Positions 2,400 through 59,120 are shown, counted from the first letter of the stretch. The stretch is DNA of 62,508 bases from Bacillota bacterium (GCA_021795575.1 JAJYPH010000002.1:1-62508), one strand, 5' to 3'. Notes: generated by a model not told the origin, from the letters alone. A program made the numbers and translations.

Positions 2400-2942
2400 A
2401 TGGCGGAACACTCGGCACCGAGCGGAATCGGAGGGCGAATGATGGCCCGCGGGGTGGGGGCCCTGATTGCGAGCCTGGTTCGGTATCCCGAATTGTCCAG
2501 CTTGGACTTTCAGCCCGAAGGCAGCGACGGCGGCCGGGTGACGCTGTCCTTCTGTCTCCGGGGCCGTCTGCCGCATGACCGGGCGGTGGCCTTGGCCGAC
2601 GCGCTCATGGAAGTGCTGCTGACCTATCACCACCTGTTGCGATTTCCGCTGGCCGGCCACGGGGTGGCGGAGTTCACGACCGAGTACGTGGAGCCACTGA
2701 CGATCTTGCGGTTGGCCCGGGACATCGAGAGCCTGACGCCCGACGAAGTGGGCATGGTGATTGACCTCCTGCGGGACCAGTGCGGCGTCGACCTCTTGAT
2801 GGACCCCAACGATTTCAGCGAAGACGACCTTTTGGACCAGGAAGAGACCATCCAGGCGGCCCTCGACTCGCTGGGCCAGGAGCCCGGCCGCCGCCTGTTC
2901 GCGCTGCGCGAAGAGGGACGGGTGCTGGTGTTCAACACGTGA
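2400..2942 (+). CDS. Hypothetical protein (180 aa) sitting between recX and ymdB
   Basis: ATG at 2400 preceded by GGGGAAGGGGG. High GC3 and natural composition with an acidic C-terminus. I recognise no motif. The long 298-aa ORF call upstream of this ATG overlaps recX. Confidence 0.6.
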   Translation: MAEHSAPSGIGGRMMARGVGALIASLVRYPELSSLDFQPEGSDGGRVTLSFCLRGRLPHDRAVALADALMEVLLTYHHLLRFPLAGHGVAEFTTEYVEPLTILRLARDIESLTPDEVGMVIDLLRDQCGVDLLMDPNDFSEDDLLDQEETIQAALDSLGQEPGRRLFALREEGRVLVFNT

Positions 2943-3003
2943 AGCGAAGACGCCCGCCGGCTTCTGGTCGCCGCGCCTTTGTGGGCAGGAAGGGCGGCCA
3001 GCC

Positions 3004-3789
3004 GTGCGCGTTCTGATGTTGGGCGATGTGGTGGGCAAACCCGGGCGACGCCTGGTGCGTGCGGCCGTGCCGCGCCTCAGGCGGGAGCGGAACCTGGACC
3101 TGGTCGTCGTCAACGCCGAAAATGCGGCGGGGGGCAACGGCCTCACGCATGAGGTGGCCGATGAGCTGTTGTCATCGGGAATAGACGTACTGACGTCCGG
3201 CAACCACATCTTTGACAAAGACAACGTGCTCACGTTTATCGACGACCTGCCCGTCCTGCTGAGGCCCCTGAACTATCCCCCGGGCACCCCGGGACACGGC
3301 GCCGTCGTCGTGGAGGCCCGTGATGGCACCCGCGTGGGCATTATCAACGTGTCGGGGCGGGCGTTCCTGCCCCAATCCTACGATGACCCGTTTCGAGCCC
3401 TCGATGCCACCTTGGACGCACTGCCCGCCGCCGAGGCCATCCTGGTGGACGTTCATGCCGAAACCACGTCGGAGAAAGTGGCGCTGGGCTGGTACCTGGA
3501 CGGCCGGGTGTCGCTGGTGGTCGGCACGCACACCCACGTGCAAACCGCCGACGAGTGGATCCTGCCCCAGGGCACCGGCTACCTGAGTGACCTGGGCATG
3601 TGTGGGCCGTATCGGTCGGTCATCGGGGTGCGGACCGAGCTGGTCTTGCAAAAGTTTTTGACTCAGCGGCCGGTGCGCTTTGAGACGGCCACCGGGCCCG
3701 CCCAGCTCTGCGGTTTGATTGCCACCATCGAGGCGGGGCGCACGGTGGCGTTGGAGCGCGTTTACGAGCGGGAGCCGCTGTCCACGTAG
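3004..3789 (+). CDS. ymdB: YmdB-type metallophosphoesterase (TIGR00282-like, 2',3'-cyclic-nucleotide phosphodiesterase)
   Basis: The N-terminus MRVLMLGDVVGKPGR...VVVNAENAAGGNGLT and the later GTHTHVQTAD motif are characteristic. Confidence 0.9.
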   Translation: MRVLMLGDVVGKPGRRLVRAAVPRLRRERNLDLVVVNAENAAGGNGLTHEVADELLSSGIDVLTSGNHIFDKDNVLTFIDDLPVLLRPLNYPPGTPGHGAVVVEARDGTRVGIINVSGRAFLPQSYDDPFRALDATLDALPAAEAILVDVHAETTSEKVALGWYLDGRVSLVVGTHTHVQTADEWILPQGTGYLSDLGMCGPYRSVIGVRTELVLQKFLTQRPVRFETATGPAQLCGLIATIEAGRTVALERVYEREPLST

Positions 3790-47384: not shown

Positions 47385-47632
47385 CCGGCCGCTTCCCGTG
47401 GGGGACGCTTGGCGAGGCCGAGCGCCCGCCGGTGCACTGGCACGTTATGGCCATCGATGAAAATGGCGCCGGGGAGGAAGACCGCGTACTCGCCTGCCTC
47501 CACCATTTCCCGCCGCGCGCTTTCGTCCTATGGGTCGCACGCGGGCTTCGACCAGGCGAATTCGTCGCGGTGTGGGAAGAGCCGGGATATCGCGAGGGCT
47601 GCCTGAGCCGGGGGGCGCTGCTATGTCGATAG
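47381..47632 (+). CDS. Small HWH-motif protein 2 (83 aa)
   Basis: Contains ...RPPVHWHVMAIDENGAGEEDRVLAC..., paralogous to the preceding ORF. 10-nt overlap with the Rep start. Confidence 0.55.
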   Translation: MTGRFPWGTLGEAERPPVHWHVMAIDENGAGEEDRVLACLHHFPPRAFVLWVARGLRPGEFVAVWEEPGYREGCLSRGALLCR

Positions 47633-48951
47633 CGCAGGACCTCCATTGGCACGTCCATATCACGTGGCGGCCGCCGGGTCAGGTCGCGACGGGCCAAGTG
47701 GTCGGGTGCGTTTCGGACATCGGCGCGGGCGGCGAGTATGCCGCCGACATAGCCGCCGCTAGCGATATCCTGGCCTACGTGGACGGCATCACCCTCCAGC
47801 GGCAGCCCGGCTGTCGGCGGCCTCATCTTTTCCGCCTGGTGGCTCCGATGATCCGCCGTCCGTACCGCCCGACCCCCCTCCAAGCGTACGCGCTGGCCAT
47901 TGCGGCGAGCGCGCGCGCGCAGGAGGTGGCCGCCCGCCGCCTGGCGACCGCGAAGGACCGCGCCTGCGCCGAAGCGGCGATCGCGGCGGCGCGGGCGGCG
48001 GATCGCGCCGCCCGGATGGCCGCCGGCCTCCCCTGCTTTGGCCTTGAATACGGGAATAGAAACATTTGCGGCCGACCGCGCCAGACAAGGGTTTGCGGGC
48101 ACATGGCCGAACCCGTGATCGGGGCGCCCAGCGCGGCCGTCGCCCGCCCCCTGTTCGGTGACGGCTACCACAACCGCGAGCGGTGGGGGGCAGAGATCGC
48201 CGCGAACTTGCGCGGGGCGACCGCGACCACCTGGATGCGTCGGATGGGCGACCGGATGGCTCGCTGCCGGTCGTGGGTCGTCGAGTCCCAAGGGGCCGTG
48301 GAATTGACCGAAGCTTGCCGCTCTTCCCTATGTCCCCAGGGCCGGCGCGCGCGCGGGCAGATGTGGGCGGCGCGCTTGACGCCGTGGCTGGAGCGCAACG
48401 AGGAGGAGGGATTGTCGCTCGACGGCTCGGGGCGCATCTGGCGGGATATGGACTCGGAATGGCGCGCCGCGCTCGGCTACGCGGCGGCGGCCCGCGACAC
48501 CGCCTTCACCAAGCTGCAACGACTGGACCGGCAAGACCAGCGCGGCCCGACATTGCGCTATTGGCCGCTGTTTCTCACTCTGACGCTGCGTAACGTCCCG
48601 CGACTCCAGGAGCGGGACGGTGACGGAAACGTGACCTGGAACGTGCTTGTGGACCACTTCGGAGCCAGTTGGCGGACAATGCGCGAGACGGCCCGGCGGC
48701 ACCCCGACAGTGGCGCCGGGCGACTGTGGGGGCACATCGTCGGCGGCGTCAAGGCCCTGGAAATTACGTGGAACGAGCGCGCGCAGACCTGGCACCCCCA
48801 TGCGCACGTGCTGGTATTGGCGGACGTGTCCTACATCAGCGGGCGCGAGCTGGCAGAGCTGTGGGAGCACTACGCCGATGCCTATATCGTGGACGTGCGG
48901 GCGGTGGACGGGCACCGTGAAGGAGGGACAGACCTCCGGCAGCGTGCCTAG
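47623..48951 (+). CDS. Rolling-circle replication initiator (Rep_1/pC194 family), apparently disrupted before the catalytic Tyr motif
   Basis: Motif I is PLFLTLTLRNV. The HUH motif is TWHPHAHVLVLADVSYIS..ELAELW...IVDVRAV. The frame stops about 10 codons after VDVRAV, where the ExxKYxxK motif is expected. Confidence 0.75.
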   Translation: MSIAQDLHWHVHITWRPPGQVATGQVVGCVSDIGAGGEYAADIAAASDILAYVDGITLQRQPGCRRPHLFRLVAPMIRRPYRPTPLQAYALAIAASARAQEVAARRLATAKDRACAEAAIAAARAADRAARMAAGLPCFGLEYGNRNICGRPRQTRVCGHMAEPVIGAPSAAVARPLFGDGYHNRERWGAEIAANLRGATATTWMRRMGDRMARCRSWVVESQGAVELTEACRSSLCPQGRRARGQMWAARLTPWLERNEEEGLSLDGSGRIWRDMDSEWRAALGYAAAARDTAFTKLQRLDRQDQRGPTLRYWPLFLTLTLRNVPRLQERDGDGNVTWNVLVDHFGASWRTMRETARRHPDSGAGRLWGHIVGGVKALEITWNERAQTWHPHAHVLVLADVSYISGRELAELWEHYADAYIVDVRAVDGHREGGTDLRQRA

Positions 48952-49007
48952 CGCCACGCCGTTCAACTGGGCGCGGTACCCGGGACCGGTGGTGTTGAGC
49001 TCGGGGG

Positions 49008-50088
49008 TGAAGGCATGACCGGGTGCAGGCCCTGGACGGCAAGAGCGCCCCCCCGCCGTTCACGCCGTAATCACCGAGACGTTCGCCACCCTCCAGGCCC
49101 GGTTGGGGGTGGCGGGCGCCTGCCGGGCCCTGGGCCAACCACGGTCGACCTACTACGCGCGGCGGCATCCGCGGCGGGTCGCGGGGCCGCGTCCCCGACC
49201 CACGCCGCGCACGGCCTTGTCGGCCGCCGAACGCGCCGCCATCTTGGCGGCGTTGCACAGCGAGCGCTTCGTCGATGCCCGTCCCGCGACCGTGTGGGCC
49301 ACGCTGTTAGATGAAGGCGTCTACCACGCGTCCTCGTCGACCTTCTACCGGCGGTTGCGCGCCGCCGGCGAAGTCCGCGACCGCCGGGCCCAGGCCACGC
49401 ACCCGCCCCGCAAGAAGCCGGAGCTCCTGGCCACGGGCCCCAACCCGGGGTGGTCGTGGGACATCACCTATCTCCCGGGGCCCGTGAAGGGCCAGTACTA
49501 CCGGCTCTATGTGATTCGGGACATCTTCAGCCGCGCCGTGGTGGGGTGGCTCGTGGCCCCGACCGAGGCCAAGTGGATGGCCGCCGCGCTCATCCGCGCC
49601 ACCGTGCGACGCCACGGCGTCGCGCGCGACACCTTGACCTGGCACGCCGATAACGGGGCCGCGATGGTGTCCCCGCCCGTCGCCGCCCTCTTGACGGAGC
49701 TCGGCGTGACGAAGAGCCACTCCCGGCCCCATACCTCCAACGACAACCCGTATTCCGAGGCCCCGTTCAAGACCCTCACGTATCGGCCCGACTTCCCGGA
49801 TCGCTTCCCCAGTCTCGCGGCGGCCCGCCGGTGGTTGCGGCGGTTTTTGCACTGGTACCACACGGAGCACCGGCACAGCGGCCTGGGGTGGCTGACGCCC
49901 GCGGTCGTCCATCGGGGCGAGGGGCCGGCGGTGCAGCGGCAACGCGCCGCGGTCCTGGCGGCGGCCTACGCCCGCCACCCGGAACGGTACGCGGCCGGGC
50001 CGCCGCAGCCGCCGGCCCTACCTGACCGCGTGGCGATCAACCCGCCGGAGGATCCCCCGTAACCGGGAGCGTGAATTTCTTGCTTTCA
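49008..50088 (+). mobile_element. Candidate insertion sequence carrying the rve transposase (boundaries tentative)
   Basis: The termini TGAAGGCATGA (49008-49018) and the reverse complement of 50078-50088 (TGAAAGCAAGA) match at 9 of 11 positions and begin with TG. I saw no flanking target duplication. Confidence 0.35.
49103..50062 (+). CDS. DDE transposase with rve (integrase core) domain, IS3-family OrfB-like
   Basis: HTH-like ACRALGQPRSTYYARR. Catalytic contexts WSWDITYL, LTWHADNGAAM and SNDNPYSEAPFKTL. The frame is open from 49019, and no OrfA-type ORF lies upstream. Confidence 0.85.
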   Translation: MGVAGACRALGQPRSTYYARRHPRRVAGPRPRPTPRTALSAAERAAILAALHSERFVDARPATVWATLLDEGVYHASSSTFYRRLRAAGEVRDRRAQATHPPRKKPELLATGPNPGWSWDITYLPGPVKGQYYRLYVIRDIFSRAVVGWLVAPTEAKWMAAALIRATVRRHGVARDTLTWHADNGAAMVSPPVAALLTELGVTKSHSRPHTSNDNPYSEAPFKTLTYRPDFPDRFPSLAAARRWLRRFLHWYHTEHRHSGLGWLTPAVVHRGEGPAVQRQRAAVLAAAYARHPERYAAGPPQPPALPDRVAINPPEDPP

Positions 50089-52176: not shown

Positions 52177-52749
52177 CTATGTGTCGATGAACGACGCGCG
52201 GCTCCACCAGGTACTGTCGGGGTAACGAGCCTTCAGGGTCTGCCAACGGCTGATAAACTGGTCGCGCTGCCCCTGTCGCAGCGCGGCGACGCCTGCCCAG
52301 TACAGCGCCTCCGGTGCGGCGTGCGGGTGTCCCCCCTCCCCCACCGCATCAAAGGCCGCCAACGCGTTGGCAAAGTCGGCATGCAGCAGGTGCGCCTGCC
52401 CCTCAGCCAGCCGGATCACCGCGACAAAGTGCCGGGGCTCGAGGTAGCCAATCTCCCGTCGTACTTCGATGCCGTGGTGGTCCAGCCACACCATGGTCGG
52501 CGTCCACACCTGGCGAAGTTCCCGCATCAGCTGCCGGGTGGACGGATCCGGCTCCGCGGTGTTGACTTGGACGGCCACCGTCCGCTCGTTCAGGACCTCG
52601 GCCACGTCCGGGTTTGGATACGTCACGGCATCCATCTGGGCGCAGCCCCCTCACCCCGGGGTCTTGACGAAGTCCACCAACAACAGCTTCCGCCGCTCCG
52701 CCGCCAGGTTCACCGCGCCCGTATAGGACGGTTGCCATATAATGGCCAT
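52177..52749 (-). CDS. Thioredoxin-fold (Thioredoxin_7-like) protein with in-frame TGA at the first Cys position of CxxC: candidate selenoprotein, or a pseudogene
   Basis: The ATG at 52749 is preceded by AAAGGAGGG. It reads MAIIWQPSYTGAVNLAAERRKLLLVDFVKTPG-TGA-GGCAQMDAVTYPNPDVAEVLN... in one frame. The ORF track only reports the part downstream of the TGA (52177..52635). Confidence 0.6.
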
Positions 52750-52806
52750 TAGGCCGTTCCCTCCTTTAACTAGGTGAAACCCCACCGGTCCAGGGTCCCG
52801 CATTGA

Positions 52807-52821
52807 GTATACCTAGTATAC
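52807..52821. promoter_or_regulatory. Near-perfect palindrome GTATAC-CTA-GTATAC in the divergent intergenic region
   Basis: 6-bp arms with a 3-nt spacer, in the AT-richest patch between the thioredoxin-fold gene and the XRE/MmyB-like regulator. It also carries TATAC(T/C) -10-like hexamers on both strands. Confidence 0.5.
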
Positions 52822-52956
52822 CGTAAGCCGGTCGGTTCATCGAGGCCCGTTGGATGCACTCCATCCTAAGGCAACCTCAGGGCCGTGCAGGCACCCCGTC
52901 CCAGATCGTACAATAAGGCGCCAGTCAGGCTGCAGTTTGGTGGAGGGGGCGCTAGG

Positions 52957-53760
52957 GTGCAGATCGGTGAGCGGATTCGGACGTGGCGCAACGCCCACGA
53001 TTTGTCCCAGGCGCACCTCGCCAACCGCGTGGGCCTGTCTCAGCGACAAATTTCTCGCATCGAGCGCGATGACTTGGCCACCCTGCGACGGGACACGCTG
53101 GTCCGCATCGCGGAGGCCCTCGAGACGCCGGTAGCGTCGGGCGAGGTTAATGTGTGGCTGGCGCACTGCGGCTACGCGCCGCTGGTGCGGCCCGGCCTGC
53201 CCCTACCGCCTCCGCTGCGGTCGATGCCCTGTGACCCCGCCGCCCGTTTCGTCTTTGATCCCAGCGGCGCGCTATTGTCCACCAATCCGGTGGGCCAACA
53301 CCTGGTCGGACAGTTCCTGGACCGATGGGAGCAGTTCAACCTGCTGGACTTCACGCTGGCCGGGACCGTCGGCCTGTCCGCGGGCGACCGGGACCGACTG
53401 TGGTACTGGACGGTGCTGGGCGCGCTGTCAGCACCACCCGAACTTTGGGCGCTCGCGGTGCGGGCCCAGATTGAGCGCGCGTGGCAACAGCCGCTGGAGG
53501 CGGTGTGGCTGGCCCTGCAACAGGCAGTGGGCAGCCCCGGGTACTGGGAGGCGCCTCTGACGGTGCACGTCGGCCGCACGGCGCTCTACTTCATGCCCAC
53601 CACCCAAGCGTACCCGCTGCGCCCCGATTTGCAGCTGTTGTACCTCACGGCGGCCGATGCGTCCACCCTGGCCTGGTGCGAAGAGCGTGCGGCCTCCGGC
53701 GCCGAACGTCGACGGCACGGACGGCCCGTCGCCGCCGGCCATCTGCCCCCAGATCGCTAA
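52957..53760 (+). CDS. XRE-family HTH regulator with MmyB-like C-terminal domain
   Basis: The GTG at 52957 follows GGAGGGGG. HTH IRTWRNAHDLSQAHLANRVGLSQRQISRIERD, with a C-terminal roughly 170-aa ligand-binding-like domain. Confidence 0.65.
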   Translation: MQIGERIRTWRNAHDLSQAHLANRVGLSQRQISRIERDDLATLRRDTLVRIAEALETPVASGEVNVWLAHCGYAPLVRPGLPLPPPLRSMPCDPAARFVFDPSGALLSTNPVGQHLVGQFLDRWEQFNLLDFTLAGTVGLSAGDRDRLWYWTVLGALSAPPELWALAVRAQIERAWQQPLEAVWLALQQAVGSPGYWEAPLTVHVGRTALYFMPTTQAYPLRPDLQLLYLTAADASTLAWCEERAASGAERRRHGRPVAAGHLPPDR

Positions 53761-58776: not shown

Positions 58777-59085
58777 ATGTCCATCGCACTGACCGTCACG
58801 CCGGCCGCGGAGCGCGCCTTTGGCGATTTGGCGGAAGACCGCGGAGCCACTCTGGTTCGGGTATGGGCGGGCCAAGCCTGTGGATGCGGCCGGATTGGGT
58901 ACAAGATGGCCCTCGAGGAAGAGGCCAACACCGAGGACGCCGTCATTCCGGCGGGTGTCATCAAGCTGGTGGTGAGCCCGGATTCGGCTCCTCATCTGGA
59001 GGGGGGCATCATCGACTACAGCGAGGATCCCATGTACGCGGGATTTACCATCAACAATCCCAACGCGCAGTCGGGTTGTGGCTGA
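58777..59085 (+). CDS. HesB/IscA-family iron-sulfur cluster insertion protein
   Basis: The ATG follows GAAGGGAGG. Reads LTVTPAAERAFGDL...VRVWAGQACGCG...IDYSEDPMYAGFTINNPNA..GCG. Confidence 0.75.
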   Translation: MSIALTVTPAAERAFGDLAEDRGATLVRVWAGQACGCGRIGYKMALEEEANTEDAVIPAGVIKLVVSPDSAPHLEGGIIDYSEDPMYAGFTINNPNAQSGCG

Positions 59086-59120
59086 GGGCACTGACCCACC
59101 GGTCGGTCGACCGGTCTTGT

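Follow-up and report, generated by a model that had tools for sequence, protein, structure and literature searches.

Does the TGA triplet at 52653..52651 end a short reading frame, as public annotation would have it, or is it the thirty-third codon of a longer gene whose product carries selenocysteine (Sec) at that point? The question arises on the minus strand of a 62,508-nucleotide (62.5-kb) stretch of DNA from a Bacillota bacterium (GCA_021795575.1, JAJYPH010000002.1:1-62508), referred to here as the window, in which the open reading frame (ORF) list, like the public assemblies, places a start at ATG 52635 and obtains a protein of 152 amino acids. Our comparison of this locus with its relatives leads us to believe that it is very probably one gene, encoding a cytoplasmic selenoprotein of 190 residues with the UGA at 52653..52651 read as Sec. 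The parts of the predicted gene are as follows.

52177..52749, minus strand: the whole predicted selenoprotein gene (190 codons plus TAG, Sec being codon 33), from the sequence and its translation, with an architecture shared with 74 other genomes.
52759..52767, minus strand: Shine-Dalgarno sequence AAAGGAGGG, read directly from the sequence, with a spacer of 9 nt to the ATG at 52749.
52654..52749, minus strand: the N-terminal 32 codons, MAIIWQPSYTGAVNLAAERRKLLLVDFVKTPG, assigned to helix alpha-0 and strand beta-1 of a thioredoxin fold from the pattern conserved upstream of the TGA and from the model of a homologue.
52651..52653, minus strand: the UGA, very probably Sec (U33), first residue of a U-G-G-C redox motif, from the TGA or Cys that homologues have in the same column.
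52644..52642, minus strand: the TGC codon of Cys36, the predicted resolving Cys of the redox motif U33-G-G-C36.
52441..52650, minus strand: the remainder of the thioredoxin-fold domain, residues 34-103, from the invariant W-T-P and from structure matches.
52500..52498, minus strand: P84 of the cis-Pro-type W-T-P, invariant in the alignments.
52177..52440, minus strand: a C-terminal helical domain resembling tetratricopeptide repeats (TPR), residues ~104-190, with the APEALYWAGVA and W..RAS motifs, plus the TAG, from TPR_6 and the model.
52179..52177, minus strand: the stop codon TAG, read from the sequence.

From the ATG at 52749..52747 the frame runs for 190 codons and is interrupted by that single TGA, which is followed by GGG GGC TGC GCC CAG ATG, so that the read-through peptide spanning Sec is KTPG-U-GGCAQMDAVTYPNPDVAEVLNER. 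A first-pass annotation of this DNA had pointed to this upstream ATG and its Shine-Dalgarno sequence, and to one in-frame TGA at the place of the first redox Cys, and each of these is indeed present, as is the start that it reported for the ORF track. The relative L002 has the Shine-Dalgarno sequence AGAGGAGGG at the equivalent place. The identical gene was found in independent assemblies; GCA_027346115.1, whose sequence is the same, splits it into ORFs of 32 and 152 amino acids. UGA is an ordinary stop codon here, 13 of the 37 genes predicted in the window ending in TGA, and any recoding would thus be specific to the site rather than the outcome of a variant genetic code.

To place this TGA in its family, we fetched the DNA of 80 homologous loci, every one in a separate species-level genome (the best 80 of at most 600 pattern matches, found with a narrower alignment; the 47-sequence alignment had no stretch conserved enough), which belong to Bacillota, Gemmatimonadota, Acidobacteriota, Myxococcota, Candidatus Eisenbacteria and Chitinophagaceae. 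An in-frame TGA stands in the same column in 74 of these 80 loci, with coding sequence conserved on both of its sides when the upstream DNA is translated, and every Sec-form locus has, ahead of the TGA, the N-terminal pattern I/V-x-W/F, ..A.., LLDF/LVDF, ..P-G/M. Four loci (L008, L019, L027 and L040) have Cys in that column, and the remaining two (L073 and L080) are partial or lack the motif region. When starts are assigned by a simple start-codon rule, Sec is residue 33 in 35 of 75 sequences, a pattern that includes the window protein. Protein databases give the same picture from the other side: among 92 homologues returned by a protein search, about 80 are 140-165 amino acids long and start precisely at the post-motif Met, and about 12 are 188-221 amino acids long and have C-x-G-C at the position of the U-G-G-C of the window. 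Searching 1.84 billion cluster representatives with a profile yielded 273 matches at E <= 1e-30, which include a few long TPR-repeat proteins that are not related. The 238 proteins that we collected comprise about 195 cut short to the post-motif Met, about 27 CxGC proteins of full length, and a few SxGC or CGGS variants. What homologues carry in this column, on which the first-pass annotation had made its proposal of Sec depend, is therefore TGA (74) or Cys (4) among the 80 loci, and Cys in the ~27 full-length database proteins. Judged from these sequences, the family is a large one in which the Sec form predominates in the sample, obtained by a search that is itself biased toward Sec.

A hairpin lies just 3' of the UGA in every Sec-form locus, and it is of two types, of which the window has the first.

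52634..52615, minus strand: candidate bacterial selenocysteine insertion sequence (SECIS) hairpin UGGAUGC-CGUGAC-GUAUCCA, the same in all 11 class A sequences.
Class A (the window, L001-L007 and L009-L011, from Bacillota, one Acidobacteriota and some Gemmatimonadales): UGGAUGC-CGUGAC-GUAUCCA, with a 7-bp stem and the loop 23 nt after the UGA.
Class B (64 loci, a hairpin not in the window): CUCGGC-UGGAU-GCCGAG, with a 6-bp stem and the loop 16 nt after the UGA.

In the window, the seven pairs of the stem include one G.U pair, the loop has six nucleotides, and stem and loop begin 16 nt and 23 nt after the UGA, respectively. A hairpin at 52615-52634 had been noticed in the first-pass annotation, which was right as to its presence and mistaken as to its shape, given there as a stem of 5 bp with a loop of 10 nt. 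By the bSECISearch criteria, a bacterial SECIS has its apical loop 16-37 nt from the UGA and a G in the first two positions of the loop, and the class A loop CGUGAC (23 nt) and the class B loop UGGAU (16 nt) match both in spacing and in their early G. The class B hairpin is shifted by 6-7 nt relative to that of class A, and the stems are written over different codons, those for M-D-A and T-Y-P in class A and those for A-R-L and A-E in class B. In the class A stem, six of the seven pairs are kept in all 11 sequences (five are invariant, and the G.U becomes A-U in three), and the outermost U-A pair is broken in two of the 11.

Synonymous codon use across these hairpins is unusually rigid. In class A, codons +7 to +11 after the UGA (GAT, GCC, GTG, ACG, TAT) are fixed at 0.88-1.0, unlike the rest of these genes, which prefer GAC and TAC to the GAT and TAT of the hairpin. 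In class B, codons +4 to +9 (GCT, CGG, CTG, GAT, GCC, GAG) each reach 0.89-1.0 among synonymous codons, the rare codon GCT being one of those fixed, compared to ~0.3-0.8 for Ala, Arg and Leu codons at most other positions of the gene that are as well conserved. The Cys forms, on the other hand, do without the structure. Local folding energies lie between -1.2 and -5.4 kcal/mol in L008, L019, L027 and L040, compared to a mean of -11.75 kcal/mol (range -7.4 to -14.4) in the Sec forms, and the Cys forms L165 and L166, which encode the identical peptide C-L-G-C-x-Q-M-D-A-V-T-Y-P, spell it ATG GAC GCC/GCG GTC/GTG ACC TAC/TAT, so that the stem is destroyed. The fixed synonymous sites and the absence of the hairpin from Cys forms together argue that it is selected at the RNA level and tied to the UGA, and on this comparative evidence we consider it to be so; the conserved structure after the UGA for which the first-pass annotation had proposed to look is hence present.

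In a rough neighbour-joining ordering, class A and class B fall into separate groups, with the Cys forms between and beside them. Two class B copies (L058 and L072, both from Gemmatimonadetes bacterium AG4, QHTZ01) sit on separate contigs of one metagenome-assembled genome (MAG), and could be paralogues or strain variants. Locus L080 (Gemmatimonadales, DATFEG01, ~2900-3300) reads ...EEARSQRRFGERYGAQWTP, so that its W-T-P region follows immediately on the N-terminal helix; the entire segment with the redox motif appears to be lost, and this locus may be a degenerate non-redox copy.

A second gene of the window, 6 kb from the thioredoxin-fold gene, has a TGA and a hairpin of its own.

58777..59094, plus strand: IscA/HesB-type Fe-S assembly gene, candidate selenoprotein, from a TGA at a conserved Cys and a hairpin.
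59098..59115, plus strand: hairpin ACCGGUC-GGUC-GACCGGU, beginning 12 nt after the UGA.

This gene, annotated as a protein of 102 amino acids, starts at ATG 58777 and ends ...NNPNAQSGCG-TGA(59083..59085)-G-H-TGA. With C at the first TGA, its product scores 74 bits against NCBIfam TIGR00049 (cutoff 58.8), and it gives no match to the model of the known HesB-like selenoprotein, NF038090 (24 bits, cutoff 85). Its orthologue P0240, 87% identical, has ...SGCGCGH at its C-terminus, where other homologues have CGCGGHH or CSCGGH, which puts the TGA at the second Cys of a conserved C-terminal C-G-C motif. The sister genomes L168, L169 and L170 retain the TGA, and among sister genomes the GGUC loop of the hairpin is invariant, with one compensatory change from U-A to C-G and one change from C-G to U.G. 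P0240, in the same gene neighbourhood, has TGC and no hairpin, and keeps the terminator that follows. L171 and L172 were also among the loci compared for this gene. A second gene with a TGA at a Cys position and a hairpin suggests, at the level of sequence, that the lineage of the window decodes Sec.

Among other explanations for the TGA at 52653..52651, the one that survives best, although we regard it as very unlikely, is that the UGA is recoded as something other than Sec, by low-level near-cognate read-through (with Trp or Cys) after the Sec machinery was lost. That no gene of this machinery lies within the 62.5-kb window would agree with such a loss, which however sits poorly with a hairpin at SECIS-like spacing under strong purifying selection, with a second gene of the window bearing the same signature of TGA-at-Cys and hairpin, and with the retention of both genes in sister species of the lineage.

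It is extremely unlikely, in turn, that the annotation is correct as it stands, with the UGA ending a 32-residue peptide and a functional protein of 152 residues made from ATG 52635, with re-initiation as a possible route. Class A does conserve the Met at 52635, a G-rich run lies ahead of it, and gene callers pick the post-motif Met everywhere; however, the run (UGAGGGGG, 10 nt before the ATG) is formed by the Sec-Gly-Gly codons and relatives do not conserve it, and because of it the first-pass statement that this ATG has no Shine-Dalgarno sequence of its own is only roughly right. In class B, moreover, the equivalent residue is Leu (CTG), which is no start codon, although conservation there still extends to the TGA and to the N-terminal part, and the Cys homologues are continuous proteins. 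A product of 152 residues would also be without strand beta-1, helix alpha-0 and the entire redox motif, and could not form a thioredoxin fold. The first-pass annotation had said as much of the active site, and was correct in this, even though what is missing is not just the first redox residue and extends to the whole U-x-x-C motif and strand beta-1.

The probability of a recent nonsense mutation or a sequencing error, which would make the locus a pseudogene or an assembly artefact, is negligible, for although a single base change in TGC or TGT yields TGA and Cys forms of the family exist, the gene is identical in independent assemblies, 74 other loci of several phyla have TGA in this column, the 32 upstream codons are still conserved as coding sequence, the TGA forms come with a hairpin specific to them, and conservation of the TGA across at least five phyla excludes the recent change from TGC or TGT that had been offered as the alternative in the first-pass annotation.

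As to what kind of protein is encoded, we scored the read-through product against Pfam with C in place of U (gathering cutoff 27 bits). Read-through raises the Thioredoxin_2 score from 22.3 bits for the 152-residue piece to 43.4 bits (E 4.7e-11), and adds Thioredoxin_7 at 34.3 bits and Thioredox_DsbH at 27.9 bits; since it takes read-through of the TGA to pass the cutoffs, signal specific to the family resides in the 32 upstream codons. For the C-terminal domain, TPR_6 scores 25.3 bits (E 2.1e-5), just under its cutoff of 26.3, and there are weak YbgF-type NCBIfam matches. The AlphaFold2 model that we used is that of P0029, a full-length Cys homologue 46% identical to the window protein, with a mean predicted local distance difference test score (pLDDT) of 94.6 and a predicted template modelling score (pTM) of 0.90. 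It has a thioredoxin fold over residues 1-100 followed by five helices over residues 104-193, with Cys32 between beta-1 (residues 23-28) and the helix 33-42, as in a CxxC-type motif at the N-terminus of alpha-1. When the window protein is searched against the sequences of the PDB, U33 falls on the nucleophilic Cys that opens CPYC in 2LST and CVAC in DsbD-gamma. Invariant or nearly so in the family are P84 of W-T-P, R98, G101, the A-P-E-A-L-Y-W-A-G-V-A helix and W181. Because the N-terminus is part of the fold, the protein would have no signal peptide and be cytoplasmic. The product is thus predicted to combine a thioredoxin fold of the DsbD-gamma/Thioredoxin_7 type with TPR-like helices at its C-terminus, and to have no signal peptide; the Thioredoxin_7-type fold that had been recognised in the first-pass annotation holds by Pfam, by the PDB alignment, by the P0029 model and by Foldseek.

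Thioredoxin-fold proteins with a UxxC motif are the commonest type of bacterial selenoprotein, a known class into which this gene falls by domain and motif, and the principle is therefore not new. Reviews of 2022 and 2026 list a 'Thiol:disulfide interchange protein' selenoprotein family with PF13098 Thioredoxin_2 and UxxC (example WP_011366075.1), and also Thioredoxin_7/PDZ (CxxU) and VPGUxxT selenoprotein families (PMC9312934, PMC13188914); 'TPR', 'tetratricopeptide' and a thioredoxin-TPR selenoprotein are absent from these two reviews. The thiol:disulfide interchange selenoprotein has been reported in the deltaproteobacteria Geobacter and Syntrophus (PMC1794560). Compared by domain and motif only, that family and the window protein have the same Pfam domain, Thioredoxin_2, and the same UxxC with Sec first; the window family differs in its extra C-terminal TPR-like domain and in having no signal peptide. 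Geobacter and Syntrophus are the source of none of the 80 loci, and none of the homologues that we found is so named. A comparison of domain and motif neither shows nor excludes that the window family is the same as that of WP_011366075.1.

DsbD-gamma, DsbH (2JU5) and the Thermus thermophilus thioredoxin 2LST are the best matches in structure and in sequence, with Foldseek E values of ~1e-7, target-normalised template modelling (TM) scores of 0.65-0.76, and the redox motif in the same place. DsbD-gamma matches the P0029 model at E 1.7e-7 with a target-normalised TM score of 0.72-0.76, and 2LST is 36% identical to P0029 by Foldseek and, in the PDB sequence search, reaches E 5.7e-5 with the window protein. 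In contrast to DsbD, DsbH and 2LST, the window protein would stand alone in the cytoplasm without a membrane domain, with Sec for the first Cys and a TPR-like extension, and it falls well short of the full DsbD and DsbH architectures in NCBIfam (29.4 bits against a cutoff of 330 and 13.5 against 190, respectively). Similarity that is weak but significant at the level of the domain (E 1e-15 to 1e-3) links it to TsoB (NF045694), to VPGUxxT types 1 and 2 (NF041382, NF041383) and to Trx7/PDZ (NF041199), and the P-G-U of class A is reminiscent of the VPGU of the VPGUxxT family; the window motif, however, is UxGC and theirs are UxxT or CxxU, the partner domains differ, and every score is several-fold or more below the cutoff of its model, for the window protein as for class B members (e.g. 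37-56 against 805 bits for TsoB, and 21-36 against 275 bits). Against NCBIfam release 20, in fact, the window protein, two class B members and one Cys form were all below the cutoff of every model, the best being TsoB, DsbD and VPGUxxT type 2. The family thus appears to be without a curated model, and there is a fair chance that it is genuinely undescribed.

With regard to the domain C-terminal to the thioredoxin fold, CnoX/YbbN proteins have the same order of domains, thioredoxin then TPR, and the structures 3QOU and 3QDN align over both (Foldseek E 2e-5, ~214 columns). The likeness appears to be one of architecture rather than of family membership, and E. coli CnoX is not known to have a CxxC motif. 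Putting these elements together, we would tentatively entertain the following reading of the family as a whole: an undescribed family of selenoproteins made of a Thioredoxin_7-like and a TPR-like domain, with the motif U-x-G-C, in which the Sec form far outnumbers Cys; spread broadly across phyla of soil and sediment (Gemmatimonadota, Acidobacteriota, Myxococcota, Eisenbacteria) as well as thermophilic Bacillota; cut short in practically all public annotation; with two SECIS hairpins evolved over the same stretch of protein; and acting as a selenium-dependent, CnoX-like chaperedoxin.

Several of our results weigh against the reading that we prefer for the locus, that of a selenoprotein gene. 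Domain, tRNA and Rfam scans of the window found none of selA, selB, selD and tRNA-Sec; motif screens of the window for SelD and SelB gave nothing, the window holds no tRNA of any kind and no Rfam match at gathering thresholds, and in 60 relatives no tRNA-Sec adjoins the selenoprotein gene. The ratio of Sec to Cys forms is biased toward Sec, because the search patterns and the profile were built mostly from Sec forms. Compensatory covariation was sought in both hairpin classes and none was seen, the stems being essentially invariant except for the change of G.U to A-U; when compared to shuffled sequences, the window hairpin has a z-score of -0.34, which is not unusual for GC-rich sequence, and a permissive Rfam scan of the hairpin region returned meaningless weak matches only. 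The RNA evidence is for these reasons that of synonymous-site conservation and of absence from Cys forms. As to any specific cellular role, no cluster of flanking ORFs is common to more than 7 of 81 loci, and hence there is no operon-based clue to function. Lastly, superposition on CnoX/YbbN of E. coli and Salmonella is poor, with a root-mean-square deviation of 12-16 Å, TM scores of 0.3-0.4, 14-15% identity and a different thioredoxin subtype.

If the 190-residue selenoprotein is made as we propose, translation would start at ATG 52749 and the ribosome would insert Sec at UGA 52653..52651. By analogy with the standard bacterial pathway, the hairpin at 52634..52615, itself part of the coding sequence, would tether SelB carrying Sec-tRNA(Sec). 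The fold suggests that Sec33 would be the attacking nucleophile and that Cys36 would resolve, in a selenenylsulfide cycle, and the helical domain would most likely bind or cap a protein partner or substrate, as in the thioredoxin-TPR chaperedoxins CnoX/YbbN. We infer these three steps, namely the tethering of SelB, the chemistry of Sec33 and Cys36 and the partner-binding role of the TPR-like domain, from such parallels.

The neighbours of the gene in the window are a convergent Caa3_CtaG gene, a divergent helix-turn-helix (HTH) regulator and succinate dehydrogenase-like genes. Between the selenoprotein gene and the divergent HTH_3/HTH_31 regulator gene (52885..53760, plus strand), ~55-75 nt upstream of ATG 52749, lies the tandem repeat GGTATACT-A-GGTATACT (52806-52822, minus strand), each unit of which has the palindrome GTATAC; the repeat is exact in L002, L001 has the inverted repeat GGGGTATAC..TATACCCC instead, and the repeat may be an operator or a -10 region. 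A scan for promoters and terminators around the selenoprotein gene found nothing, and no consensus promoter. At 2-5 kb downstream of the gene, the region 47530-50062 holds a Rep_1 replication-protein ORF and an rve-type integrase (49103..50062), and the public contigs L081 and L082, otherwise identical, differ exactly there, which suggests an insertion element that varies between strains.

The window as a whole is a chromosomal stretch of a spore-forming member of the Bacillota, with recA, recX, ymdB, mutS, mutL, miaA, lexA, gdh, codY, a SleB-like hydrolase and a SpoVK-like ATPase. Its RecA is 99% identical to that of the MAG Bacillota bacterium WH5.bin24 (JAKADP01), the next best match found being at ~74-75%, and a near-identical neighbouring protein bears, in one record, the database name 'Thermaerobacter sp.'. 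A screen of the window for other TGA-joined ORFs, based on GC content at third codon positions (GC3), was far too unspecific, because the sequence is 69% GC.

These results do not challenge the current understanding of bacterial selenoproteins, and their weight lies in the correction of annotation at a large scale. Public records show this gene and its relatives in two pieces or cut short, and therefore lack the active site; as a consequence, the use of selenium is underestimated both in soil phyla that are abundant and in a thermophilic, uncultured lineage of the Bacillota, and one curated model would correct many records together. The family also offers a natural experiment, in that two SECIS solutions are laid over one conserved peptide and matched Cys forms encode the same peptide without a hairpin, which makes it useful for studying how the constraints of coding and of RNA structure are reconciled.

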